IMG/VR virus record: IMGVR_UViG_2695420596_000007
Location: 1-21,599 of that record
DNA: 21,599 bases
Direction: 5' to 3' (one strand)
Origin: a virus
Lineage: Duplodnaviria; Heunggongvirae; Uroviricota; Caudoviricetes
A model generated the notes under the pieces. That model did not search any database and was not told the origin of the DNA. It saw nothing but the letters and a program-made list of their open reading frames with translations. The translations under genes and the position numbers were made by a program. Shown here piece after piece: positions 1-17,225 of this stretch (positions within the stretch are counted from its first letter, which is position 1; each line of letters begins with the position of its first letter).

Positions 1-1257
1 GTGCTTACCGATACAAAATTAAAAAACCTCAAGCCGCAGGACAAACTGTACAAGGTCTCCGATCGTGACGGGCTGTATGTAGCTGTGCTTACGTCAGGCA
101 CGGTCTCGTTTCGCTATGACTACCGTATCAACGGTCGCCGCGAAACACTGGTAATCGGGCAGTATGGGCGTGACGGTATCAGCCTAGCAGAAGCGCGAGA
201 AGAACTGATTGCTGCAAAGAAGCTGCTTAAAGCAGGCCAGTCGCCGGCTGCGGCTAAACGTGACGGTATCAAAAAGATTCGTGGTGCCGAGACGTTTGCG
301 GTACATACCGACAGTTATATGAAACACGTCATCCTGGCTGACAGTACCCGCGCAATGAAGCAGGCGGTGATCGACCGTGACATACTTCCGGTTCTTGGCA
401 ACAAAATGATGGCTGAAATTACCACATCGATGGTTCGTGATTTGTGTGACCGGATTGTCGAACGCGGTGGCCGGGCAACAGCAGTGCAGGCCAGGGAGAT
501 CATCAGCAGCGTATACCGTCACGCCAATGACCGTGGTCATGGTTTGTTTAATCCTGCGGCTGATATTAAGCCTTCATCTATCGCCATATTTAAACCACGA
601 GAGCGAACGCTGACACCAGAAGAAATTGGTCTTTTCTTCCGCACGCTGGATGCCATTGGTGCTATGGGCACTATGAAAATGGCTTTAAAACTGCTGCTTA
701 TCACTATGGTTCGTAAGGGCGAATTCACCAATGCAACGTGGGATGAAATAGATTTTAAAAAATGGACATGGACAATTCCTTCAGACCGCATGAAGGGAAG
801 CCGGGCGCATGTTATTTACCTGCCTAAACAGGCACAGGATATATTGGTCGGGTTGCAGATGTGCGCTGGTGGAAGTGAATATCTGGTTCCTGGTCGTTAC
901 AATTTCCGGAAGCCATTATCTAATGCCGCGCTGAACTCTCTGATCGACAGAACGGTGAAAATAATAAATGAAGATGGTGAGCATATTCAGGACTTCACCG
1001 TACACGATATGCGCCGTACAGCAAGTACGTTGTTGCATGAGGCTGGTTATCCTTCAGACTGGATTGAAAAGGCTCTGGCACATGAGCAGAAAGGTGTGCG
1101 CGCCGTATATAACAAAGCGGAATACGCCAGACAGCGCGCCTACATGTTGCAGCAGTGGGCCGATATGATTGATTCCTGGATTAACGGGGAGCATACGGAT
1201 CTGATTCCGTTCTCCCCGTCGAAGTTTGAGAAGTGGATGGAAGACAGTAATAAATAA
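1..1257 (+). CDS. int: Phage integrase, tyrosine recombinase (P4-like). The ORF starts with GTG at the window edge, so the true start may lie a few codons upstream
   Basis: 418-aa ORF; N-terminus LTDTKLKNLKPQDKLYKVSDRDGLYV is typical of P4-family integrase arm-binding domains; C-terminal HDMRRTASTLLHEAGY and YNKAEY fit the catalytic R-H-R-Y region. Confidence 0.9.
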   Translation: MLTDTKLKNLKPQDKLYKVSDRDGLYVAVLTSGTVSFRYDYRINGRRETLVIGQYGRDGISLAEAREELIAAKKLLKAGQSPAAAKRDGIKKIRGAETFAVHTDSYMKHVILADSTRAMKQAVIDRDILPVLGNKMMAEITTSMVRDLCDRIVERGGRATAVQAREIISSVYRHANDRGHGLFNPAADIKPSSIAIFKPRERTLTPEEIGLFFRTLDAIGAMGTMKMALKLLLITMVRKGEFTNATWDEIDFKKWTWTIPSDRMKGSRAHVIYLPKQAQDILVGLQMCAGGSEYLVPGRYNFRKPLSNAALNSLIDRTVKIINEDGEHIQDFTVHDMRRTASTLLHEAGYPSDWIEKALAHEQKGVRAVYNKAEYARQRAYMLQQWADMIDSWINGEHTDLIPFSPSKFEKWMEDSNK

Positions 1258-1259
1258 TT

Positions 1260-1919
1260 CTATCCTTCCTGGACTTTGGTAAGCGTCAGATTTCCGCAGA
1301 ACACTGCGCCGGTGTCGATGTACATCTGGTTTGCATACACCAGTGGGTGATGTGCTGGCGTATGACCGAAGATGAACAAATCGGCACCGGTTATCTCCGA
1401 GACAATACCGTCCTGCGCGTCGCTAACCCGCTCACGATTCCATATCACCATTTCTTCTGGTACTGGCTTATCGAATGCGTATTCGTTGTGCGGGTAGTCT
1501 GCGTGACAGATGACGAGCTTCTTATTGCCGGTAACTAGTTCGATAATCATCGGGAGGTTGGTAATCTTTGGCAGAAGGTATTTGAGTTGCACATCCTGCT
1601 CAGAATCAAGTTGGTGCCACCATCCACCGCCGTTTGACATCCAATGTCCGAAACTTCCGCCGTTGACCAGTGCATCCAGCATCATCTGCTCATGGTTGCC
1701 ACGAACAGCTCGGAACCACGGCATAGTAATCAAATCCAGGCATTCGACGTTTTCAGCGCCGCGGTCAACAAGGTCACCAACGGAAATAAGTAAATCGCGC
1801 GCCGGGTCGAATGAAACTTTGTCGAGTTCGTTCATCAGCAGCGTGTAGCACCCATGCAGATCGCCGACGACGAAGATATTGCACCAGTCAGCGCCATTGA
1901 TGCGTTGATATAGGTTCAT
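1260..1919 (-). CDS. Ser/Thr protein phosphatase, lambda-PPase-like metallophosphoesterase
   Basis: 219-aa ORF with the three metallophosphatase motifs GDLHG, GDLVDRG and GNHE; near-collinear with phage lambda phosphatase as recalled; start overlaps the stop of the upstream methyltransferase gene (ATGA). Confidence 0.85.
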
Positions 1920-2566
1920 GCTGCACGCTCCCGCCCCTGGTTGTCTATTGGTGACACCGGAGCATTGCTGAATGCATTTGTTAATCCGCCAATATCCAAC
2001 GCGTATCCGGGGTGTAGTTGCACTGCCGGGTCTTCACACTGATTACCCCAAACATCGAAGCCATGAGACGTCTGGCGGGCGAACAGTTCAATGCGAGAAA
2101 CATCGCCTAACAATTGCACAAGTTTTTCACGAACGATATCTGGTTTTCTTGAGTGCTCAAGCCGCGGTGCGGTAAATGACTGAACGATCCCTGCATTAAT
2201 GCGCGGAGGTAGTTTTCCCTTTACTGCAAACAGGCAATCTTCACTATTGGCGCGAGTCATGTGACCCATACCCATAACCAGTTTATCTGGTTGTCGACTA
2301 CCACATTTTATCCACGTGAATCCCTTCATGGTCATCAGACGGAATCCCCAGGCTTCAACAACTTTTAGTGCTTCGAGTGGTTGTGTTGGCACCCACCACA
2401 TGGCCAACAGACAGTTTTCATCGGCCAAATCCCACACAGGAAGGCGGCAGATATCCATCACACTCATAACCGGATATTTAAAACCGGCACCGCGATTACC
2501 ATCTGCGGCTTTGTCCCGGTATACCCAGGGTGGATCTGCATAGATTAGTGTGTATTTCTTAGTCAT
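1916..2566 (-). CDS. MT-A70-family N6-adenine DNA methyltransferase (orphan, no cognate endonuclease seen)
   Basis: 216-aa ORF with the DPPW catalytic motif ([10 protein letters not shown]) near the N-terminus, typical of MT-A70 / phage Dam-like methylases. Confidence 0.8.
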
Positions 2567-2858
2567 AAACCACCCCGCAACATCCTATACCGCTATAGTC
2601 GCCACGGCGAAGGCCGTTACTTTTTGTGATACATTGGTCCCTGCGAACCGCGATCCTTGCACGCTCAACATCACCAGAAGCAACATCCATACACTGAAGC
2701 CAAAGGTGAGCGGCAATGCGGAACTGCCCTTTTTTCTCTCTTTCAATCGCGCGTTTTTCGATCTCTATCGCCGCAGGAGTAACGGCGACAATCTTTGACG
2801 GACTGCGCATTGAAACCTTGTTCATGTGATATTTTTCAAGTCGGCTTAACTTTCTCAC
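2559..2858 (-). CDS. Hypothetical protein (99 aa, GTG start as listed; the internal ATG at MNKVS is an alternative start)
   Basis: ORF in the same leftward operon, overlapping the methyltransferase start by 8 nt; no recognisable motif. Confidence 0.4.
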   Translation of the reverse strand: MRKLSRLEKYHMNKVSMRSPSKIVAVTPAAIEIEKRAIEREKKGQFRIAAHLWLQCMDVASGDVERARIAVRRDQCITKSNGLRRGDYSGIGCCGVVYD

Positions 2859-2967
2859 TTAATCCAACCCTCTCTGAAAATTAATGCCAGCAGATAAAGC
2901 CATGCTGAAACAGAGGCCAGGAATAAGTACCATCCTGACCATTTGCTCCAGTGCCTTAGCAGCACAC

Positions 2968-3216
2968 TCATGCTGCGTTGCTCACAGGACGATATACACG
3001 TTGCTGAACAGGAGGCTTTTTACCCTGGAACTCTGCCGGGCTTGCTGCCTGACGTTCATCAAGCCAACGCTCAACTTCATCACGGTTCCATGCGCAGCGT
3101 TTATCGGTGATATACCAGCGTTTAGGAAATTCCCCTGCGCGCTCCATACGGTCGATAGTGCTCCATGACAGTGGCACCACCGCCAGGAGTTCCTTCTTAC
3201 CTAATGCACCTTTCAT
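2968..3216 (-). CDS. alpA: AlpA-family DNA-binding protein (MerR-like HTH; excisionase / transcriptional regulator)
   Basis: 82-aa ORF; LLAVVPLSWSTIDRMERAGEFPKRWYITDKRCAWNRDEVERWL matches the AlpA / phage excisionase HTH pattern; good SD (AGAGAGG) upstream of the ATG. Confidence 0.8.
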   Translation of the reverse strand: MKGALGKKELLAVVPLSWSTIDRMERAGEFPKRWYITDKRCAWNRDEVERWLDERQAASPAEFQGKKPPVQQRVYRPVSNAA

Positions 3217-3265
3217 AAATACCTCTCTTGGTTGCAGTGCGGCGCGCGTGGCGCCGCGGTGGTGG

Positions 3266-4147
3266 TTACATAGATGTTTCGTTTAATTCTTCCCGACGAA
3301 CGCTGTAAACGTCGGTGGCTTTTGCCAGCAGTTCGTCATCATCTGAAAGTTTTTGTGCAATGTATTTGTAAGCCTTATCCAGTTCGGAGACAGTGCTGTA
3401 ATTCATCGCTGCGCTGGTAAAGGCCATCAGCATTTCTTCTGGATCACGGCTATCCGCTTTACGCGTTTGCTCATCATGCTTTTTCACTGGTTTAGCGTTG
3501 ATCAGACTGTTCATTCCCGCAGCAGTAGTCGTTTGCGGAGTAATGTCTCGCTCAACGCGCGGTGCCGTTTCCTGTAATTCGTCAGGGGTGTAAACACCGA
3601 GAAGCACATCAGGAGCGTGCAGGCGAGCCCATCGTTTCGTGCAAAGATAGGCAAGCTGCTGGCGCGGATCCTGTTCCCACAATGGAGAGTTACGCACTCC
3701 GGCTTGCGCCATACTGATGGTAAGCTCACGGGGTTCTGCTTCTCCTTTAAGAACTGCTGACACAGTTACCGTCAGATTCGGTGATTTATCTGTTTTGCCG
3801 TTAACATTCGACCAGTCACCGCTCCAGCGATAATTCAGGCGTGTCGCTAGCAGGCTGGAAGAGGATACGACCGCGTTTACCAACTGTGCTTCGTAGCCTA
3901 ACGTTCCGTTTACCACATGCGTTTTCTGCGCCACGGCGAAAGGGTTCATTCCCCACTGTGCCGCCTGCATGGTCACCGCCAGACAATCGGCAGGTTTTCC
4001 TTCAAGATGTTTCGGTACAGTCGCTTTGCTTTGTGACATCAACTCCGCGAAACGCACCAGTTGATTCATGCCCTCCGGGCTGAAGATTGCCGCAGCAGTA
4101 CCTACAGTTGCGCCTGGTTGTGATGTGATTGCGATATCATTGCTCAT
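3266..4147 (-). CDS. Single-strand annealing protein, RecT/Red-beta (Bet-like) family
   Basis: 293-aa ORF; GMNPFAV..NGTLGYEAQ and NSPLWEQDPRQQL..ERDITPQ resemble lambda Bet as recalled; start codon overlaps the stop of the upstream exonuclease gene (ATGA). Confidence 0.8.
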   Translation of the reverse strand: MSNDIAITSQPGATVGTAAAIFSPEGMNQLVRFAELMSQSKATVPKHLEGKPADCLAVTMQAAQWGMNPFAVAQKTHVVNGTLGYEAQLVNAVVSSSSLLATRLNYRWSGDWSNVNGKTDKSPNLTVTVSAVLKGEAEPRELTISMAQAGVRNSPLWEQDPRQQLAYLCTKRWARLHAPDVLLGVYTPDELQETAPRVERDITPQTTTAAGMNSLINAKPVKKHDEQTRKADSRDPEEMLMAFTSAAMNYSTVSELDKAYKYIAQKLSDDDELLAKATDVYSVRREELNETSM

Positions 4148-4965
4148 ACATACATATCCTGTTTACGTGCCCAGTCAGGGCGTTTAATAATTTCCACTCC
4201 GCCCCACTCATCGTTGATGCGGCATTCGTGATAGGTATTCAGATCCCGGCGGAACAGAGCGTGCCCGGCATTGACATCCGGCGCATCCAGCTCGAACACG
4301 CGTACCGGATACCGACCACAATCAATGCTTTCGCTCACGGCAAGAAAGAAAAAACCATGCGGCTGACCAGTAACCCTCATTGCGCCTTCGCGGTACATTG
4401 CGTCCTGCACGTGGTAGCGGAATTCCTCGATGTGGCGTGCAAAACGGTCCATATCTGCAACCTTTTTCACGTCGACGATCACGTTGTGCTCGTTCAGCCA
4501 TTTGTCTGGACGAATGCGGCACAACTCACCAGTATCTTCATCGTTCCAGTACATTGATGCTTCGCAGTAACCAGGTGCTTCCAGCATCCAGCGTGCCGCC
4601 GGGTGAGCCATTGCGCTATCACGCATCAGCTCCAGTTTCCGCCACTGCTCGGCATCAAGTACCGTAATCCCCATATCCGCCACATCACGAAGAAATGCCT
4701 CTTCGTCAGCTTTACCTTGTTTCGTCCGACGATCGAATTTCGGTGAAACAATGAAGCGTTTGTCGAACTCTCCAGGCTCCAGAAGCAGACAGTGCAATGC
4801 GGTTCCCATATCCAGTGCAGACTTTTTCTCTTCGTCTTCTGGTGCTGCCTGAACCCATTTAAGAAGCGCCGGATTCTTGGCAACCATGTCCAGTTGCGAC
4901 TTACTCACGCCGTCACCGGCGTGGTAGTCTTCGTTGCTGATGTCGAAATAAATTCCCGGTTTCAT
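4144..4965 (-). CDS. PD-(D/E)XK-family exonuclease (RecE / exodeoxyribonuclease VIII-like), partner of the annealing protein
   Basis: 273-aa ORF; IVDVKK and QDAMY resemble the RecB-family (D/E)xK and QxxxY motifs; positioned immediately upstream of the Bet-like gene with translational coupling. Confidence 0.7.
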   Translation of the reverse strand: MKPGIYFDISNEDYHAGDGVSKSQLDMVAKNPALLKWVQAAPEDEEKKSALDMGTALHCLLLEPGEFDKRFIVSPKFDRRTKQGKADEEAFLRDVADMGITVLDAEQWRKLELMRDSAMAHPAARWMLEAPGYCEASMYWNDEDTGELCRIRPDKWLNEHNVIVDVKKVADMDRFARHIEEFRYHVQDAMYREGAMRVTGQPHGFFFLAVSESIDCGRYPVRVFELDAPDVNAGHALFRRDLNTYHECRINDEWGGVEIIKRPDWARKQDMYV

Positions 4966-5261
4966 GCCGCGTCCCTCTGTCCATCAAGCTGATCAGCCAG
5001 ATCCCAGCGGGCGATAATTGCCATTGCCTCTCGCCGATAGGCATCCATCAGTTCTTCGAACTCAGGGCTGTCTTTAGCTGCTTCCAGCACTTCCTGACGA
5101 ACGCCTTTGCCTATTACAACGTCGAAAGTTGAGGACAGTTGATGAAGTCGGATACTCTCAATCAGTTCAACTTGTCGGTCATATAGCTGTTCTGACAGGC
5201 GGTAGTCCTTGTCGAATGCCAGCATGATTTTTTGAAGATTTTTCTGCTGATTAACGTTCAT
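4962..5261 (-). CDS. Hypothetical protein, possibly a Gam-like host-nuclease inhibitor (start placed at MNVNQQ, ATG 5261)
   Basis: SD GGAGGG 6 nt upstream of ATG 5261; DSPEFEELMDAYRREAMAII loosely resembles the lambda Gam C-terminal region as recalled; the position before exo/bet matches the lambda gam slot. Confidence 0.45.
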   Translation of the reverse strand: MNVNQQKNLQKIMLAFDKDYRLSEQLYDRQVELIESIRLHQLSSTFDVVIGKGVRQEVLEAAKDSPEFEELMDAYRREAMAIIARWDLADQLDGQRDAA

Positions 5262-5263
5262 TA

Positions 5264-5416
5264 TCAGCCCTCCCATATCTCGTTATCGTTGGCCACATCG
5301 CGAGCTTCTTTGCTGACGAAAGCCCATTTAATGCCTTCCTGTAAGGTGCGGAACTTCCAGCTCATGAATCCGCATGCAGTAACGCAGTACCAACCGTTGA
5401 TGATTTTCCACTGCAT
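5264..5416 (-). CDS. Small 50-aa ORF, first gene of the leftward early operon (below the ORF-track threshold)
   Basis: Hand-translated MQWKIINGWYCVTACGFMSWKFRTLQEGIKWAFVSKEARDVANDNEIWEG; SD GAGGT upstream; stop is followed 2 nt later by the next start. Confidence 0.3.
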   Translation of the reverse strand: MQWKIINGWYCVTACGFMSWKFRTLQEGIKWAFVSKEARDVANDNEIWEG

Positions 5417-5435
5417 AACTTGTTACCTCGGTCTG

Positions 5436-5512
5436 TTACCGTTGAGGTAATAATTATGCGTATCTGGTTTGATGTCAATAGGTATGAGTTGAAAAAATTA
5501 CCCATTAGGTAA
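5436..5512. promoter_or_regulatory. Two copies of the TTACC-N5-GGTAA palindrome (5436-5450, 5498-5512; centres 62 bp apart) flanking a sigma70-like promoter for the leftward early operon
   Basis: TTACCgttgaGGTAA and TTACCcattaGGTAA read directly; minus-strand -35 TTGACA (plus coordinates 5473-5478) lies between them, with a weaker -10-like TAATTA. Confidence 0.6.
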
Positions 5513-5524
5513 TCATATAGGCAA

Positions 5525-5547
5525 TAAAAAAGCCGCCAGAAGGCGGC
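5525..5547 (-). terminator. Rho-independent terminator downstream of the repressor gene
   Basis: Stem GCCGCC/GGCGGC with a 4-nt loop, followed on the minus strand by a T-run. Confidence 0.6.
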
Positions 5548-5569
5548 TTACTTACTGAAAAATATGATT

Positions 5570-6154
5570 TTATTGTTTGTTTTTTTCGTTCTGGTTGATG
5601 ACAAATTCAATGTAACTTTCGATCTTTGCTTTCTCGGTTTCGGGTAACAATGCGTAGCGCGAGCGATCATAGTTGATGGTCGCAGGGTCGTGCGGGTGAA
5701 TCAGTAATTCATAGCCGTGACGCCCGAATGCGGATGCAACATTCTCCAGGGTGGAAATGGAAACGCTGACCTCATTGTTTAACAGGCGGCTAATTGTCAC
5801 CTGGGCGACGCCGGATGCGCGGTGAAGTTTTCCCTGTGTTGAAAGGTCGCGGCTTTCGCTCATCCAGCGTTCCAGGTTGTGAGCCGCCAGCTGACCAATG
5901 TCGCTTGGGCCGACAGGCTGAAAACCTTCCTGAGAAAGCGAACGATCGATATCAAGCCAGTTACGGGGTTTATTGGCGGCAGCTTCAATTTTTCGCGCAA
6001 CCTGGTCGCCGATAACCTTCTTGCCAAGAGCCCAGCGGTTTACCAGATTTGCCTGAGTTCCAAGTTTTTCTGCCATCCGCGTCTGAACACCATTGAATTC
6101 ACGGTCGATCAAGTCGTTGAGATTTTGCCTGCGGACGTCCTGGATACTTTTCAT
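5570..6154 (-). CDS. Prophage repressor candidate: XRE-family protein with two HTH regions and no LexA-like S24 peptidase domain
   Basis: 194-aa ORF; N-terminal HTH (MAEKLGTQANLVNRWALGKK) and a second HTH-like segment (VAQVTISRLLNNEVSVSISTLENVASAFG); no GDSM or Ser-Lys autocleavage signature; divergent from a Cro-like gene. Confidence 0.7.
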   Translation of the reverse strand: MKSIQDVRRQNLNDLIDREFNGVQTRMAEKLGTQANLVNRWALGKKVIGDQVARKIEAAANKPRNWLDIDRSLSQEGFQPVGPSDIGQLAAHNLERWMSESRDLSTQGKLHRASGVAQVTISRLLNNEVSVSISTLENVASAFGRHGYELLIHPHDPATINYDRSRYALLPETEKAKIESYIEFVINQNEKNKQ

Positions 6155-6209
6155 TTTCTGGAAAATCGCCTCATATATGAATCAGTAGATGATTCAATTT
6201 AAAGCAATA

Positions 6210-9002: not shown

Positions 9003-9632
9003 ATGGAAAGTAATATCAAAGGGTTAGTTTCCGCCGGGCATGAGATGGCTTCGGAACTGAAAGCAGAATGTGGTGCCGTTGATATGCGCAGCGTGGCAAA
9101 GCTGATCAGCGATTTGGCAACCGGTAGCGGTAAAGCTTTGTCTCGTGCTCGATCAGATAAACAGGCCAGACTTCGCGATATTGATCAACGAATCCGGCAG
9201 GCACAAGAACGCCTGGAATTTTCCCGTAACGCGTTGGCACCGCACGAGCCTGGCGGTCAGTTTTTTGAAGCTCAAGCAGAACTGGCTCGGAGACAGCAGG
9301 CAGAAAGTGAACTTAATGCTCAGGCTGTTTCATTCTATAAAACAGCAGAGGTCAGGACGCCAGACGAAGTAGCTCCTTTTGAGCCTGATAAAATATTGCA
9401 ACAGGCAGAACAAAAAATGATGTCAGATCAGGCAGGAGATATTGATCTGCGCATAGCTGAAGACTCGTTGCTTGAATCACCTGACATGATAATCACCGTG
9501 CTGGATGATGATGGTAATCCACAATCGCGCAGTGCGCGTGAAGTACTGGATGAAGCGAACAGGGAAAGTGAGCAGGCAATACAGGATTCCAGCCTGTTTG
9601 ATGTCGCTGTGGCGTGTTTCTTGAGAGGTTAA
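9003..9632 (+). CDS. Hypothetical acidic coiled-coil protein (209 aa)
   Basis: Strong SD (GAGGGTAAAG) before the ATG; no recognisable catalytic motif; highly acidic C-terminal half. Confidence 0.55.
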   Translation: MESNIKGLVSAGHEMASELKAECGAVDMRSVAKLISDLATGSGKALSRARSDKQARLRDIDQRIRQAQERLEFSRNALAPHEPGGQFFEAQAELARRQQAESELNAQAVSFYKTAEVRTPDEVAPFEPDKILQQAEQKMMSDQAGDIDLRIAEDSLLESPDMIITVLDDDGNPQSRSAREVLDEANRESEQAIQDSSLFDVAVACFLRG

Positions 9633-14690: not shown

Positions 14691-17225
14691 ATGACGGTCT
14701 CAACCGAAGTTGACCACAACGAATACACCGGCAACGGCGTTACGACATCGTTTCCGTATACCTTCCGCATTTTCAACAAATCCGACCTGGTTGTTCAGGT
14801 GGTTGACCTTGATGAAAATATCGCTGTGCTGGCTCTTGATACTGATTACACTGTCACTGGGGCTGGTGGATATAACGGCGGTAATGTAATTCTGTCGAAG
14901 GCGTTAGCTAACGGTTATCAGATTTCTATATCACGAGAGCTACCAGTTACGCAGGAAACTGATCTGCGAAATCAGGGAAAGTTTTTCGCTGAGGTGCATG
15001 AAGACGCGTTCGATAAGTTAACGATGCTGATCCAGCAGGTTCGAAGTTGGTTTGGCCTGGCACTGCGCAAGCCATCATTTGTGGCAAACTATTACGATGC
15101 TTTGAACAATTACATCCGAAATTTGCGCGATCCTTCAAAGCCTCAAGATGCAGCAACGAAAAATTATGTTGATTCTGTTGTTGATACAAATTTAAGTAGA
15201 ACATTAAGAGTACCAGAGCCAATAAATTCTTTCCCAGGCGCCGAAACGCGGGCAAATATGATGCCTGCCTTCGATAGTCAAGGGAATGCTGTTCTGGTTC
15301 TACCCCCATCAGGTTCTGCATCGGATGTTTTGCTACAACTTGCAAGCGCCGAAGATGGGAAAGGCGATTCACTGGTTGCAGTCAGGCAACCCATTACTGG
15401 TGCTTTATCTCGCACTCAGCACGATAAAAATCAGGATTTCATCACACCACAGGACTTTGGTGTAAAGATGGATGGTACTGACTCTACTGATGCGATCAAC
15501 GCTTTCGTGGAGTATGTGAACGCGATACCTAATACTGATGGAATTCCTGTTGGAGTGCTATTCCCACCAGGTACAATCTCATATTCTAAAGACATGCATT
15601 TCACCAGACCGGTAAGAATTATCTGCGAAGGAACTGTATTCCATTACTTAGGCTCAGGAAACGCCTTTAACATGGGCCCATATGATCTAAGCGGAGACTA
15701 CAACGGAGCTACTGGTAAGACCCCGTTTAATAAGCACTACAGTATTGAAGGTGCTGTTTTTAAGGGGGGGGCAACATCAGGATATGCAATAAATTTTGCT
15801 CATTGGGTAACTTATTGCGATGTATCTAATTGCGAATTCCGTGCGTTTGGCGGAGATGGCTCCTGGGCTGTTAATGCCGAATTTAACAACTGGAGGGTAT
15901 CGGTAAGGGATTGCTTGTTCGAGGCCCATACCGATTTCATAGCTGATAGGGTGAATACACGGAACTTTGTGCGCTGCCCTGGTTACTACGAAGATCATGT
16001 TCTTGGTAAAGTTGTTGATCTTTGGAGTACATTGTTGACGGCAACAAACAATAAGGTGGAAGGTGTTGGCTGGTCGCGTGGCGGGATAGCTTACTGGATT
16101 AGCGGTTGGCGCACGGTTATTGAAGGAGGAGCAAACAATGGCATGCTTACTGATGTTATCATTTCAGCTGGTTGTGCAGATGTAACACTTCTAAATTTCT
16201 ACTCAGAGAAACCATTTGGCCCAGAGGAAGGGGAGGTAATTAAATGCATCCAGCTATCATATGATGATGACCCATATTTTACAGGCAGTAAGGCCGATGG
16301 CGGTGCCGGAATGGTTGATAATGGTGCATCTACATTTGTAAAAAGATTAACAGTAAATGGTAGTTATGCAAATATGGGGCAACCAAATCATGTCAGCCAG
16401 TTCATACACTTTTCTCAAAGTGTTGCATTGGAAAACTTCTGCATTGATAAAGCAACATTCACCCATTATTACTATCCAATTGTTACCCAGCCAGAAATAC
16501 CAGGACATCGTAATTGGTATATTGGGGATGTAAGATTTGATGGGGATTTAGATAAGATAAGCTATCTTATAGAAACTCAATATGCTGGAGTTTATAAACC
16601 ATCATATAGCTCAAGGGTAAAAAATCTTTTAAAAGTTTTTGACGCGTCATCTATAGTTACAGGTTTTGACTCATCAGCACCAGTAAATACTAATTTTGGA
16701 ACTGTCGGTATATCAGCTATATCTGATGGAACCGGAGGTTCAATAAGATTGACAAAGCGAGCAACTAATAATACCTCGGAAGGAGGATATGAACGCAACA
16801 GATTAGATATGCAAAGAAATGCTTTTCAGCTTTCGTGCATAACGCCAGCAACTAGTCAAACTTATTTACAGATGGTTTTTGAAGTTGATATTAGCCCTTC
16901 AAAAATTCAAGGAGTTACTGCTTGCTTGTCATTTATAGCAAAAAGTTACACAAGTGGAGGTGTTTTGTTAACTGGAACGATAGTTTCTCCATCTGGTATA
17001 AATACTGCAGGTGACACGGATGTACTGGTTGCGTCTGATGGAAATTTCTATAGATATTTTATACATTTCCGTGTAGAACCAATGACTTTGGGGGCGAATT
17101 TAGATTCGCCTGATAAAGTATTGGTAAACATTAATCTTCCGGTTGGTAAGGTTTTTGATGTTGACTTGGCGTCACTTGTATTTACTATAGGTGACATCGC
17201 TTATCCTTTAGCTGCATGTTACTAG
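14691..17225 (+). CDS. Tailspike / tail fibre with a T7 gp17-type N-terminal adaptor domain and a central beta-helix-like (candidate depolymerase) domain
   Basis: 844-aa ORF; N-terminus EYTGNGVTTSFPYTF..DLVVQVVD..DTDYTVTG parallels the T7 tail-fibre N-terminal domain as recalled; repetitive G/N/S/T-rich central region typical of pectate-lyase-fold tailspikes; SD GGAG. Confidence 0.8.
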   Translation: MTVSTEVDHNEYTGNGVTTSFPYTFRIFNKSDLVVQVVDLDENIAVLALDTDYTVTGAGGYNGGNVILSKALANGYQISISRELPVTQETDLRNQGKFFAEVHEDAFDKLTMLIQQVRSWFGLALRKPSFVANYYDALNNYIRNLRDPSKPQDAATKNYVDSVVDTNLSRTLRVPEPINSFPGAETRANMMPAFDSQGNAVLVLPPSGSASDVLLQLASAEDGKGDSLVAVRQPITGALSRTQHDKNQDFITPQDFGVKMDGTDSTDAINAFVEYVNAIPNTDGIPVGVLFPPGTISYSKDMHFTRPVRIICEGTVFHYLGSGNAFNMGPYDLSGDYNGATGKTPFNKHYSIEGAVFKGGATSGYAINFAHWVTYCDVSNCEFRAFGGDGSWAVNAEFNNWRVSVRDCLFEAHTDFIADRVNTRNFVRCPGYYEDHVLGKVVDLWSTLLTATNNKVEGVGWSRGGIAYWISGWRTVIEGGANNGMLTDVIISAGCADVTLLNFYSEKPFGPEEGEVIKCIQLSYDDDPYFTGSKADGGAGMVDNGASTFVKRLTVNGSYANMGQPNHVSQFIHFSQSVALENFCIDKATFTHYYYPIVTQPEIPGHRNWYIGDVRFDGDLDKISYLIETQYAGVYKPSYSSRVKNLLKVFDASSIVTGFDSSAPVNTNFGTVGISAISDGTGGSIRLTKRATNNTSEGGYERNRLDMQRNAFQLSCITPATSQTYLQMVFEVDISPSKIQGVTACLSFIAKSYTSGGVLLTGTIVSPSGINTAGDTDVLVASDGNFYRYFIHFRVEPMTLGANLDSPDKVLVNINLPVGKVFDVDLASLVFTIGDIAYPLAACY

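Follow-up and report, generated by a model that had tools for sequence, protein, structure and literature searches.

The three genes at positions 1260-2858 of the window, which is the whole 21,599-nt stretch of DNA analyzed here, form a known locus; phages deposited in GenBank and 142 complete E. coli genomes carry these genes with identical order and annotation. On balance, we consider it somewhat probable that this locus is the integrase-proximal end of an early-left operon that carries a PerC-like gene, a GATC DNA methylase acting in lytic growth, and a NinI phosphatase gene swapped in from elsewhere. The phosphatase gene is a cassette swap found in about a quarter of the related E. coli prophages and is not a fixed part of the module.

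The prophage and its early-left operon

The type of the prophage was examined by identity to type members and by synteny, and both identified it as a phiV10/epsilon15-like Uetakevirus of E. coli. Positions 1-6200 were 98.3% identical in nucleotide sequence to phage vB_EcoP_PAS61 (OQ921333) over 6.2 kb, and phiV10, TL-2011b, and others were 96-98% identical to the window outside the swapped cassette. In region 295-3152 of PAS61, int, the NinI phosphatase gene, the adenine methyltransferase gene, and the 99-aa ORF are ordered as in the window, and the phosphatase cassettes were 99.6% identical in nucleotide sequence. However, PAS61 is a complete 39-kb phage, whereas the prophage in the window has no head and packaging genes. 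In phiV10 (NC_007804) and TL-2011b (NC_019445), int, the MT-A70 methylase gene, the PerC-like gene, the small membrane ORF, the AlpA gene, the RecT/RecE genes, and the repressor gene follow the order of the window at 96-98% identity. By contrast, a 64-aa DUF1382 gene is located between int and the methylase gene in place of the phosphatase gene, and the final 17 nt of int differ from those in the window. The prophage in the window is ~20.4 kb long and has no counterpart of the terminase-to-head block of phiV10. The ORF at 9003-9632 resembles a deletion joint, with an N-terminus and a C-terminus that hit different PHROGs, and the O-antigen acyltransferase is broken into two ORFs.

The three ORFs reported in the earlier note, encoding the phosphatase (1260..1919), the methylase (1916..2566), and the 99-aa protein (2559..2858), were all present and intact on the minus strand. 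The translational coupling claimed for them was also visible in the sequence, in which the methylase stop and the phosphatase start overlap in 4 nt (ATGA, 1916-1919), and the 99-aa ORF and the methylase gene share 8 nt (ATGACTAA, 2559-2566). This coupled chain extends upstream. The AlpA/Xis-like gene, which encodes an AlpA-family excisionase/regulator (2968..3216, minus strand; PF05930, phrog_66), is coupled through ATGA to a 38-aa hydrophobic membrane ORF (2855..2971, minus strand), and this ORF is coupled through GTGA to the 99-aa gene. The 38-aa ORF, which is epsilon15p32-like and annotated in PAS61 and phiV10, had no Pfam match. The last five genes of the operon overlap start to stop. Farther upstream in the same operon are the genes for RecT (3266..4147, minus strand; Pfam RecT) and a RecE-like PD-(D/E)XK exonuclease (4144..4965, minus strand; Pfam DUF3799), which matched PHROG 561/412 as a RecT/RecE-like pair. 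On the other side, the P4-type tyrosine integrase gene (1..1257, plus strand; Pfam Arm-DNA-bind_3, Phage_int_M, and Phage_integrase) is convergent with the operon, and its stop is 2 nt from the phosphatase stop in the sequence.

A consensus scan of the minus strand detected a terminator-like hairpin after the repressor gene (5549-5530), at the same place as an annotated terminator of phiV10, and a promoter-like site just past it (TTGACA-17-AATTAT, 5478-5450). It is probable that the early-left transcript starts at this site, and the nine tightly packed early-left genes are probably transcribed together from a promoter immediately downstream of the repressor gene. No promoter or terminator was predicted on the minus strand within 1260-3300 by this simple consensus scan. 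The promoter-like site and the lack of predicted internal signals agreed with the earlier placement of the three genes at the integrase-proximal end of the operon. The suggestion that the methylase marks host DNA fared less well, as it needs expression in lysogens and the simple consensus scan found no internal promoter.

The phosphatase gene is a swapped cassette

The gene at 1260..1919 (minus strand) encodes a 219-aa Ser/Thr phosphatase of the PPP family. The protein matched Pfam Metallophos (E=2.3e-15) and PHROG 246, "NinI-like serine-threonine phosphatase" (E=1.7e-107), and it aligned with the lambda phosphatase (PDB 1G5B) from residues 1-217 to residues 1-217 without gaps at 67% identity (E=8.9e-100). 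These matches upheld the earlier description of the protein as a lambda-type phosphatase. D20, H22, D49, R53, N75, H76, H139, R162, and H186, which we take to be the metal/phosphate ligands and catalytic residues of the lambda enzyme, were identical to those in 1G5B, and the GDxHG, GDxxDRG, and GNHE motifs and the distal His ligands of lambda NinI were also kept. By contrast, the location of the gene differs from that of lambda ninI, which is a matter of position and not of biochemistry. The lambda gene belongs to the rightward operon, in whose nin region it is found between ninE/ninH and Q, whereas the gene in the window ends the leftward operon between int and the methylase gene. The closest DNA relatives in other phages were lambdoid ninI genes located beside ninE (HK225, 78%). 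The phosphatase scored under the equivalog cut-offs of both NCBIfam models that it hit, NF008516 and NF007425, which are of the chromosomal E. coli type and presumably represent PphA/PphB.

The borders of the cassette were apparent in blastn alignments with phiV10 and TL-2011b, which end at 1240 and restart at 1914. The swapped segment, at 1241..1913, consists of the last 17 nt of int and the phosphatase gene. In phiV10 and TL-2011b, the annotations and a DUF1382 Pfam match place a 195-bp DUF1382 gene in the same slot, as is also the case for most of the related E. coli prophages. The complete phosphatase version was present in 142 of the 630 E. coli genomes matching the region, and DUF1382 was found in place of the phosphatase in 13 of 21 phiV10-like matches in a spread sample. 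The phosphatase allele itself was found at an identity of at least 95% in 146 genomes. As a small cargo hotspot, the space that separates int from the methylase gene holds DUF1382, NinI, or an AntA/B gene together with an unknown one.

A search of the literature for the biological role of NinI returned only essentiality data, in which lambda ninI was scored as non-essential (PMC10695390). We propose that a lambda NinI-type, Mn-dependent Ser/Thr phosphatase gene entered the slot through the cassette swap and displaced the DUF1382 gene. Like lambda ninI, it would probably be a dispensable accessory gene, with a product acting on host phosphoproteins.

The 99-aa protein belongs to the PerC family

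The product of the gene at 2559..2858 (minus strand, GTG start), which the earlier note had left as an unknown, is a small PerC-family protein. Residues 35-81 matched PF06069 with E=2.5e-7 and 31.3 bits (cut-off 22.6), and the protein matched phrog_868, "transcriptional activator," with E=1.8e-61; a weak match to the ANR family was below threshold. The protein may possibly start at the GTG (99 aa) or at an internal ATG (83-88 aa). Some genome annotations give an 83-aa form, and tblastn conservation to epsilon15 begins at residue 1.

PerC and PchABC activate the LEE1/ler promoter. PerC, encoded on the EAF plasmid of EPEC, and Pch, encoded on EHEC prophages, share with the protein in the window the Pfam PerC domain and the character of a small, phage-borne protein, but they are very distant from it. 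In a tblastn search of 72,556 plasmids (E<=10), the E. coli EAF perC was not among the best 15 of 21 matches, and these best 15 were only phiV10/Klebsiella-type copies and weak Salmonella matches. Within phage records, the PerC-like protein was confined to 36 phages, which were epsilon15/phiV10-like or related phages of Enterobacter and Klebsiella. The gene would represent a small regulator carried as a conserved accessory of the phiV10/epsilon15-like group.

The methylase is a minimal MT-A70 protein

The gene at 1916..2566 (minus strand) encodes a 216-aa protein with a DPPW motif at aa 11-14 and a divergent C-terminal tail of 29 aa. Residues 5-176 matched MT-A70 (Pfam PF05063) along profile positions 1-172 of 172, with E=3.2e-22 and 79.7 bits (cut-off 23.9). 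Because the Pfam domain fills these residues, there is no room for a target-recognition domain. DPPW (motif IV) is located N-terminal to the SAM-binding region, which is the permuted order, and a segment near the C-terminus (...HSRKPD...RIELFAR...) aligned with Tetrahymena MTA1. An AF2 model of the protein (pLDDT 74.6, pTM 0.75) gave METTL3 (E=4e-13, TM 0.65) and MTA1 catalytic subunits as its best Foldseek matches, and the match to PADLOC MTase_II had an E value of 8.9e-77. The protein is predicted to be a SAM-dependent adenine-N6 methyltransferase, in line with the earlier assignment as a DPPW-motif MT-A70 enzyme.

The METTL3-METTL14 and ciliate MTA1-MTA9-p1-p2 complexes, which gave the best structural matches, share with the methylase the permuted Rossmann fold and DPPW. 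However, the sequence identity of the eukaryotic proteins to the methylase was ~22-24%, and these complexes require a paralogous pseudo-enzyme as partner, whereas the window has no second MT-A70 gene. No restriction endonuclease domain was found in the called prophage ORFs by Pfam and PHROG scans, and none was found by a PADLOC scan covering the phosphatase, the methylase, the PerC-like protein, and five ORFs without a Pfam match. The methylase is therefore an orphan, and the earlier claim that no restriction endonuclease adjoins it stands.

Homologues of the methylase point to two kinds of substrate

The earlier note had called the target of the methylase unknown, but published close homologues exist. 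Over aa 1-187, the methylase was identical at 155 of 187 residues (83%; E=9e-124) to M.EcoPA8orf6770P of Stx2a phages. Beyond residue 187, where the alignment stops, the two enzymes have unrelated tails of 29 aa (window) and 21 aa (phiPA8). In phiPA8, the gene likewise encodes an MT-A70 catalytic subunit with an N-terminal DPPW, is located close to int, within the leftward early region, and has its start codon overlapped by the gene upstream, as in the window; a DUF1382 gene lies downstream of it, as in phiV10. The backbone differs, being that of a Stx lambdoid phage rather than an epsilon15-like podophage.

According to Gong, Chakraborty and Koudelka (NAR 2023/24; PMC10810198), M.EcoPA8orf6770P is nearly inactive alone in vitro, including on dam- DNA, and methylates 16S rRNA only together with PNB-2, the product of the co-transcribed upstream gene. 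The complex favors 16S rRNA in 30S subunits and increases spontaneous induction; the claim of rRNA methylation is based on SAM-consumption assays without a mapped site. The same study suggested that the C-terminal ~27-residue tail matters in holoenzyme formation and reported expression of the methylase in lysogens from a stationary-phase promoter (PMC10810198). In the alignment, this tail was absent from the methylase in the window.

A second homologue points to DNA. As cited in the phiPA8 paper, M.EcoGV from a Stx prophage of E. coli O104:H4 C227-11 produces m6A at GATC in DNA in vivo when overexpressed from a plasmid and is said to resemble the phiPA8 enzyme very closely (PMC10810198); Table 3 of a further paper lists it as GATC by PacBio (PMC6602927). 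Its likeness to the methylase in the window is taken from this description, by way of the phiPA8 enzyme. In related phages, the methylase gene adjoins DNA-modification genes, namely, those for a Dcm methylase or a DndB/DGQHR protein. GATC itself occurs in the window about as often as expected (79 vs 81.7 +/- 8.5), a count that favors neither reading of the specificity.

Other enzymes were considered as comparators and set aside. Hia5 and Hin1523, which are non-specific, are Dam-like DPPY enzymes according to their published description and not MT-A70 proteins. M.EcoVT2Dam (GATC) is a nin-region PF05869 "Dam" protein of VT2-Sakai, and its specificity could not be transferred because it has no similarity to the methylase. 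M.EcoGIX (SAY), a plasmid-borne, single-strand-specific enzyme, was not relevant.

Weighing the substrate and the role of the module

Whether the substrate is GATC in DNA appears to us evenly balanced. As a minimal MT-A70 (beta-class, DPPW) enzyme of the M.EcoGV/M.EcoPA8orf6770P clade with no separate target-recognition domain, the methylase may be made during lytic growth and may modify adenines, most probably in GATC, as the phage DNA replicates. In this role, it would supplement Dam and counter restriction rather than serve as an epigenetic writer at the lysogen stage. Several points weigh against this reading. The sole biochemical study of a close homologue saw almost no DNA methylation by the lone catalytic subunit, the specificity of M.EcoGV is second-hand from citing papers, and the 29 C-terminal residues are wholly unlike those of the phiPA8 enzyme. 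Lytic-only timing rests uneasily with a promoter scan that is a crude consensus match and with the reported expression of the phiPA8 methylase in lysogens. Because the prophage has no head and packaging genes, protection of packaged DNA could not operate in the copy in the window. The earlier note had also taken the absence of a new m6A motif as grounds for refutation, and this test is unsound; a GATC enzyme adds no motif in a dam+ host, and if the methylase targets RNA, a DNA methylome shows nothing.

The methylase could instead be a catalytic subunit like that of phiPA8, acting on 16S rRNA or on a site defined by a partner, with the PerC-like protein or another factor giving specificity and with an effect on translation or induction rather than restriction. 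We regard this as unlikely, although the phiPA8 enzyme, with its 83% identical core, depends on the upstream PNB-2 (PMC10810198) and METTL3 and MTA1, which are nearest to the methylase in structure, function only in hetero-complexes. Partner use may moreover be widespread, since HK639-type methylases (44% identity to that in the window) also have upstream PNB-2 homologues. In the window, however, PNB-2 and PNB-1 were absent by tblastn of the whole sequence (best E=4), and the PerC-like protein gave no alignment with PNB-2 at E<=100. The 8-nt overlap of the PerC-like gene with the methylase start favors a partnership of these two proteins, as do rare natural in-frame PerC-like::methylase fusions (P0003 and P0001), but one indel in a prophage undergoing decay could account for each fusion, and the two genes are separated by a DndB-like gene of 1 kb in certain relatives from E. 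coli and Salmonella. Across 80 IMG/VR loci, the gene immediately upstream of the methylase fell into 37 unrelated clusters; the PerC-like gene was the direct neighbor only in one clade of closely related E. coli loci (17 loci, >=96% identity), so that there is no independent co-occurrence. The methylase tail departs from that of phiPA8 in step with the differing upstream gene, but the long tail (...GRERAA) was also found with other upstream genes (L030-L034). With upstream neighbors this varied and a tail type independent of the neighbor, these and the phage loci gave no support to the PerC-like protein and the methylase as an obligate pair. Moreover, the rRNA evidence from phiPA8 consists of SAM consumption, with no mapped site. 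It would be a very long step, and one we consider highly improbable, to suppose that the phiV10-type tail docks the PerC-like protein in a second, unrelated type of two-subunit phage methyltransferase, that PerC-family proteins are nucleic-acid-targeting subunits rather than classical transcription activators, and that the phosphatase belongs to the same host-reprogramming pathway.

Another DNA-directed reading, that of an adenine methyltransferase whose specificity is relaxed or other than GATC and that yields a new motif and serves broad anti-restriction, seems rather improbable to us. It would suit a minimal catalytic core without a target-recognition domain that is 17% divergent from the characterized homologues and has a different tail, and it is common for prophage methylases to be promiscuous and to stay silent in lysogens (PMC4659465; M.EcoGII in PMC7544214). 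However, the documented non-specific enzymes Hia5 and Hin1523 belong to other families, and GATC is the sole DNA specificity given for the clade in the citing papers. Finally, the whole module could be without function, a leftover in a defective prophage whose genes are intact only because the deletion is recent. The missing terminase-to-head block of this ~20.4-kb prophage, the apparent deletion joint at 9003-9632, and the acyltransferase split into two ORFs agree with such a history, but we think it improbable, as the three ORFs are full length with intact catalytic residues, are 97-99% identical to those of the viable phage PAS61, and keep their arrangement in the 142 complete E. coli genomes.

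Discussion

The locus in itself matters little. The cargo slot next to int shows that lambda ninI can travel, as a cassette of one gene, from one phage backbone to another, unrelated one. The methylase is a natural variant of the recently described "rRNA methyltransferase" of Stx phages, with a core that is 83% identical, without PNB-2 and with another tail. A comparison of the window and phiPA8 enzymes could tell a DNA (GATC) target from an RNA target in this widespread prophage MT-A70 clade, and it bears on the roles of the tail and of the upstream partner.

Organization of the module and its operon

The window carries a phiV10/epsilon15-like (Uetakevirus) prophage. Over positions 1-6200 it shares 98.3% identity with phage vB_EcoP_PAS61, which is annotated in the identical order as integrase, "serine/threonine protein phosphatase NinI," "adenine DNA methyltransferase," and hypothetical protein. 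As the earlier note had proposed, three intact overlapping ORFs were found on the minus strand at 1260-2858. The 216-aa methylase (1916-2566, minus strand), with DPPW at residues 11-14, matches the Pfam MT-A70 domain over its full length (E = 3.2e-22; residues 5-176 cover 172 of 172 profile positions), confirming its assignment as an MT-A70 adenine methyltransferase, and an ATGA overlap read from the sequence supports its translational coupling to the phosphatase. The nearest structures to its AF2 model (pLDDT 74.6, pTM 0.75, tail disordered) were the METTL3 and MTA1 catalytic subunits. Hia5 and Hin1523 were rejected as MT-A70 relatives since they are Dam-like DPPY enzymes.

The 99-aa ORF (2559-2858, minus strand), previously called unknown, was assigned to the PerC family by Pfam (PF06069, 31.3 bits vs a cut-off of 22.6) and by PHROG (phrog_868, "transcriptional activator," E = 1.8e-61). 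A sub-threshold NCBIfam match to ANR (AraC negative regulator; residues 35-78, 23.7 bits vs a cut-off of 32) covers the same residues as the PerC match, a hint that these two families of small helical proteins may be related. The PerC-like and methylase ORFs overlap by 8 nt, and the overlapping chain extends upstream through a 38-aa hydrophobic ORF (2855-2971, minus strand) to an AlpA-type excisionase gene (2968-3216, minus strand). Both the methylase (1916-1924) and the AlpA-like gene (2968-2976) terminate in the same 9-nt junction, GCAGCATGA, in which Ala-Ala-stop overlaps an ATG. A C-terminal -AA was also observed in 11 of 20 diverse methylase homologues whose tails are otherwise unrelated (alignment A1); candidate explanations are a shared joint, for coupling or from recombination, and a C-terminal degron.

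Upstream of AlpA lie RecT, a RecE-like exonuclease, two small ORFs, a terminator-like hairpin (5549-5530, minus strand), and the repressor gene (5570-6154). After the terminator, the scan, which reports consensus matches only, gave a good match to a sigma-70-like site (TTGACA-17-AATTAT; 5478-5450, minus strand), and it predicted no promoter-like or terminator-like site on the minus strand at 1260-3300. Describing the module as lying at the end of the early-left operon is fair. The integrase gene is convergent with the phosphatase gene, their stops being 2 nt apart. Pfam and PHROG scans of the called ORFs, and PADLOC on a subset, found no restriction enzyme, in agreement with the claim that the methylase has no such neighbour.

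A GC-rich inverted repeat without a T-tract (GCGGCGC-CACGC-GCGCCGC, ~3226-3244, minus strand, found by eye only) occupies the sole intergenic gap in the distal half of the operon, between recT and the alpA-like gene. The RecE-like and RecT genes (3266-4965) are separate, with a 4-nt overlap, as in TL-2011b, whereas in phiV10 RecET is annotated as one fused 1,761-bp ORF (3096-4856).

Origin of the phosphatase

The earlier note's lambda-type phosphatase was likewise recovered. The 219-aa product (1260-1919, minus strand) matches Pfam Metallophos (calcineurin-like phosphoesterase; E = 2.3e-15) and the PHROG "NinI-like serine-threonine phosphatase" (E = 1.7e-107), and it aligns at full length and without gaps to the lambda phosphatase structure 1G5B (E = 8.9e-100, 67% identity). 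All metal- and phosphate-binding residues checked (D20, H22, D49, R53, N75, H76, H139, R162, and H186) are kept.

The alignment of the window to phiV10 and TL-2011b stops at 1240 and restarts at 1914; these phages have a 64-aa DUF1382 gene in place of the phosphatase. DUF1382 was present in 13 of a spread sample of 21 phiV10-like genome matches, and an AntA/B antirepressor and an unknown gene fill the slot in one relative. The region was matched in 630 of 5,426 complete Escherichia coli genomes, 142 of them with the whole phosphatase version, close to the 146 genomes having the phosphatase allele at ≥95% identity. Elsewhere, the genes closest to the phosphatase at the DNA level are lambdoid ninI (HK225, 78%) and a phosphatase gene of K-12-derived laboratory strains (78.7%). 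From these alignment breaks, counts, and relatives, we conclude that this phage lineage acquired a ninI-type gene once, in its integrase-proximal slot. Lambda ninI was scored non-essential (PMC10695390), and no biological role for it was found in the literature searched. The simplest reading is that the phosphatase serves as an accessory enzyme of NinI type whose substrates are host phosphoproteins.

State of the prophage

The prophage (1-20438) is a deletion derivative of ~20.4 kb without packaging and head genes; the terminase-to-head block of phiV10 is missing. The ORF at 9003-9632 looks like a deletion joint, with phrog_250/492 matched by its N-terminus and the final 180 positions of phrog_1145 by its C-terminus. 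Next come an intact virion structural protein of 824 aa (phrog_684) and a tail fibre (14691-17225). Other E. coli genomes (H160 and H163) seem to carry similarly shortened versions. The O-antigen acyltransferase (Acyl_transf_3, oac of phiV10) is split into overlapping minus-strand ORFs (17263-18042 and 17930-18343), pointing to a pseudogene with a frameshift, and this region has the lowest GC of the window (0.32-0.34). The last 1.1 kb (20439-21599), encoding a DUF5384 protein and a glycine-zipper lipoprotein, matches 5,422 of 5,426 complete E. coli genomes and is therefore core chromosome, placing the right prophage end (attR) near 20438.

Partner and substrate of the methylase

The integrase-proximal MT-A70 gene of the Stx2a prophage phiPA8 (M.EcoPA8orf6770P) increases spontaneous induction and virulence in a DPPW-dependent manner. 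The purified enzyme alone had almost no methyltransferase activity on DNA (dam- DNA included) or RNA, but PNB-2, encoded by a co-transcribed gene upstream, binds it in a 1:1 complex, and this complex favours 16S rRNA within 30S subunits (Gong, Chakraborty and Koudelka, NAR, PMC10810198). The window methylase is 83% identical to this enzyme over residues 1-187 (155/187), and the tails beyond are unrelated. The window contains no gene for PNB-2 or PNB-1. PNB-2 homologues (52-54% identity; HK639, 1412-1837, also L084, L087, and L091) were observed upstream of HK639-type MT-A70 methylases, consistent with the published partnership; since these methylases are only 44-45% identical to that of the window, the association spans divergent lineages.

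The PNB-2 precedent made a partnership between the PerC-like protein and the methylase worth testing. The PerC-like protein has no similarity to PNB-2. In favour of a partnership are the 8 nt shared with the start of the methylase, the differences from phiPA8 in both tail and upstream gene, and two in-frame PerC-like::methylase fusions, both rare (P0003 and P0001). However, across 80 IMG/VR loci that encode methylase homologues, the direct upstream genes, which usually overlap by 4 nt, fell into 37 unrelated clusters, and only in a single tight E. coli clade (17 loci, ≥96% identity) did the PerC-like gene directly adjoin the methylase. Moreover, the long tail (...GRERAA) is shared by methylases with other neighbours, a DndB-like gene can stand between the two genes, and the PerC-like gene is confined to 36 phage records, which are all of epsilon15/phiV10-like phages or related phages of Enterobacter and Klebsiella, vs 517 for the methylase. 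These loci and records gave no independent support, and we consider such a partnership very unlikely. The fusions have 2-3 member sequences each: P0003 (L096, 2501-3394; a prophage adjoining guaA on its int side) lost one T from the TTT of the overlap, and P0001 is also internally deleted in its PerC-like part.

With moderate confidence, we take the methylase substrate to be DNA, most probably GATC, because GATC is the sole motif-level result reported for the methylase clade (M.EcoGV, listed as GATC by PacBio; PMC6602927), because the window has no PNB-2, the partner redirecting the phiPA8 enzyme to rRNA, and because related phages place the methylase beside DNA-modification genes (Dcm, DndB-like). 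The main alternative, an RNA-directed or partner-dependent enzyme as phiPA8 exemplifies, appears unlikely, and a different or relaxed DNA specificity somewhat less probable still. GATC occurs in the window at the expected frequency, which favours none of these readings. M.EcoVT2Dam (GATC) was rejected as a precedent, being a nin-region PF05869 protein unrelated to the window methylase. A 355-aa DndB-family (DGQHR) gene lies between the PerC-like and methylase genes in E. coli NZ_CP160125 (1291-2358) and Salmonella phage SPC32N (1437-2504), overlapping the methylase start by 4 nt; the pairing is recurrent in some phiV10/epsilon15-like relatives.

On the GATC reading, the early-left transcript would supply the methylase upon induction or infection, and the enzyme would keep fast-replicating phage DNA fully methylated, as a putative Dam supplement and anti-restriction function. 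The earlier note's refuting observation, no new m6A motif upon expression, would wrongly reject an active methylase in two cases, because in a dam+ host a GATC enzyme adds none, and DNA would stay unchanged if the enzyme acted on RNA.

The identities of the module's components are secure. Public phage records and numerous genomes already contain and annotate this locus, and the methylase, its most interesting gene, has a close homologue that has been characterised. The remaining value of the locus is as a natural comparator, without the partner and with a swapped tail, for the Stx-phage enzyme.
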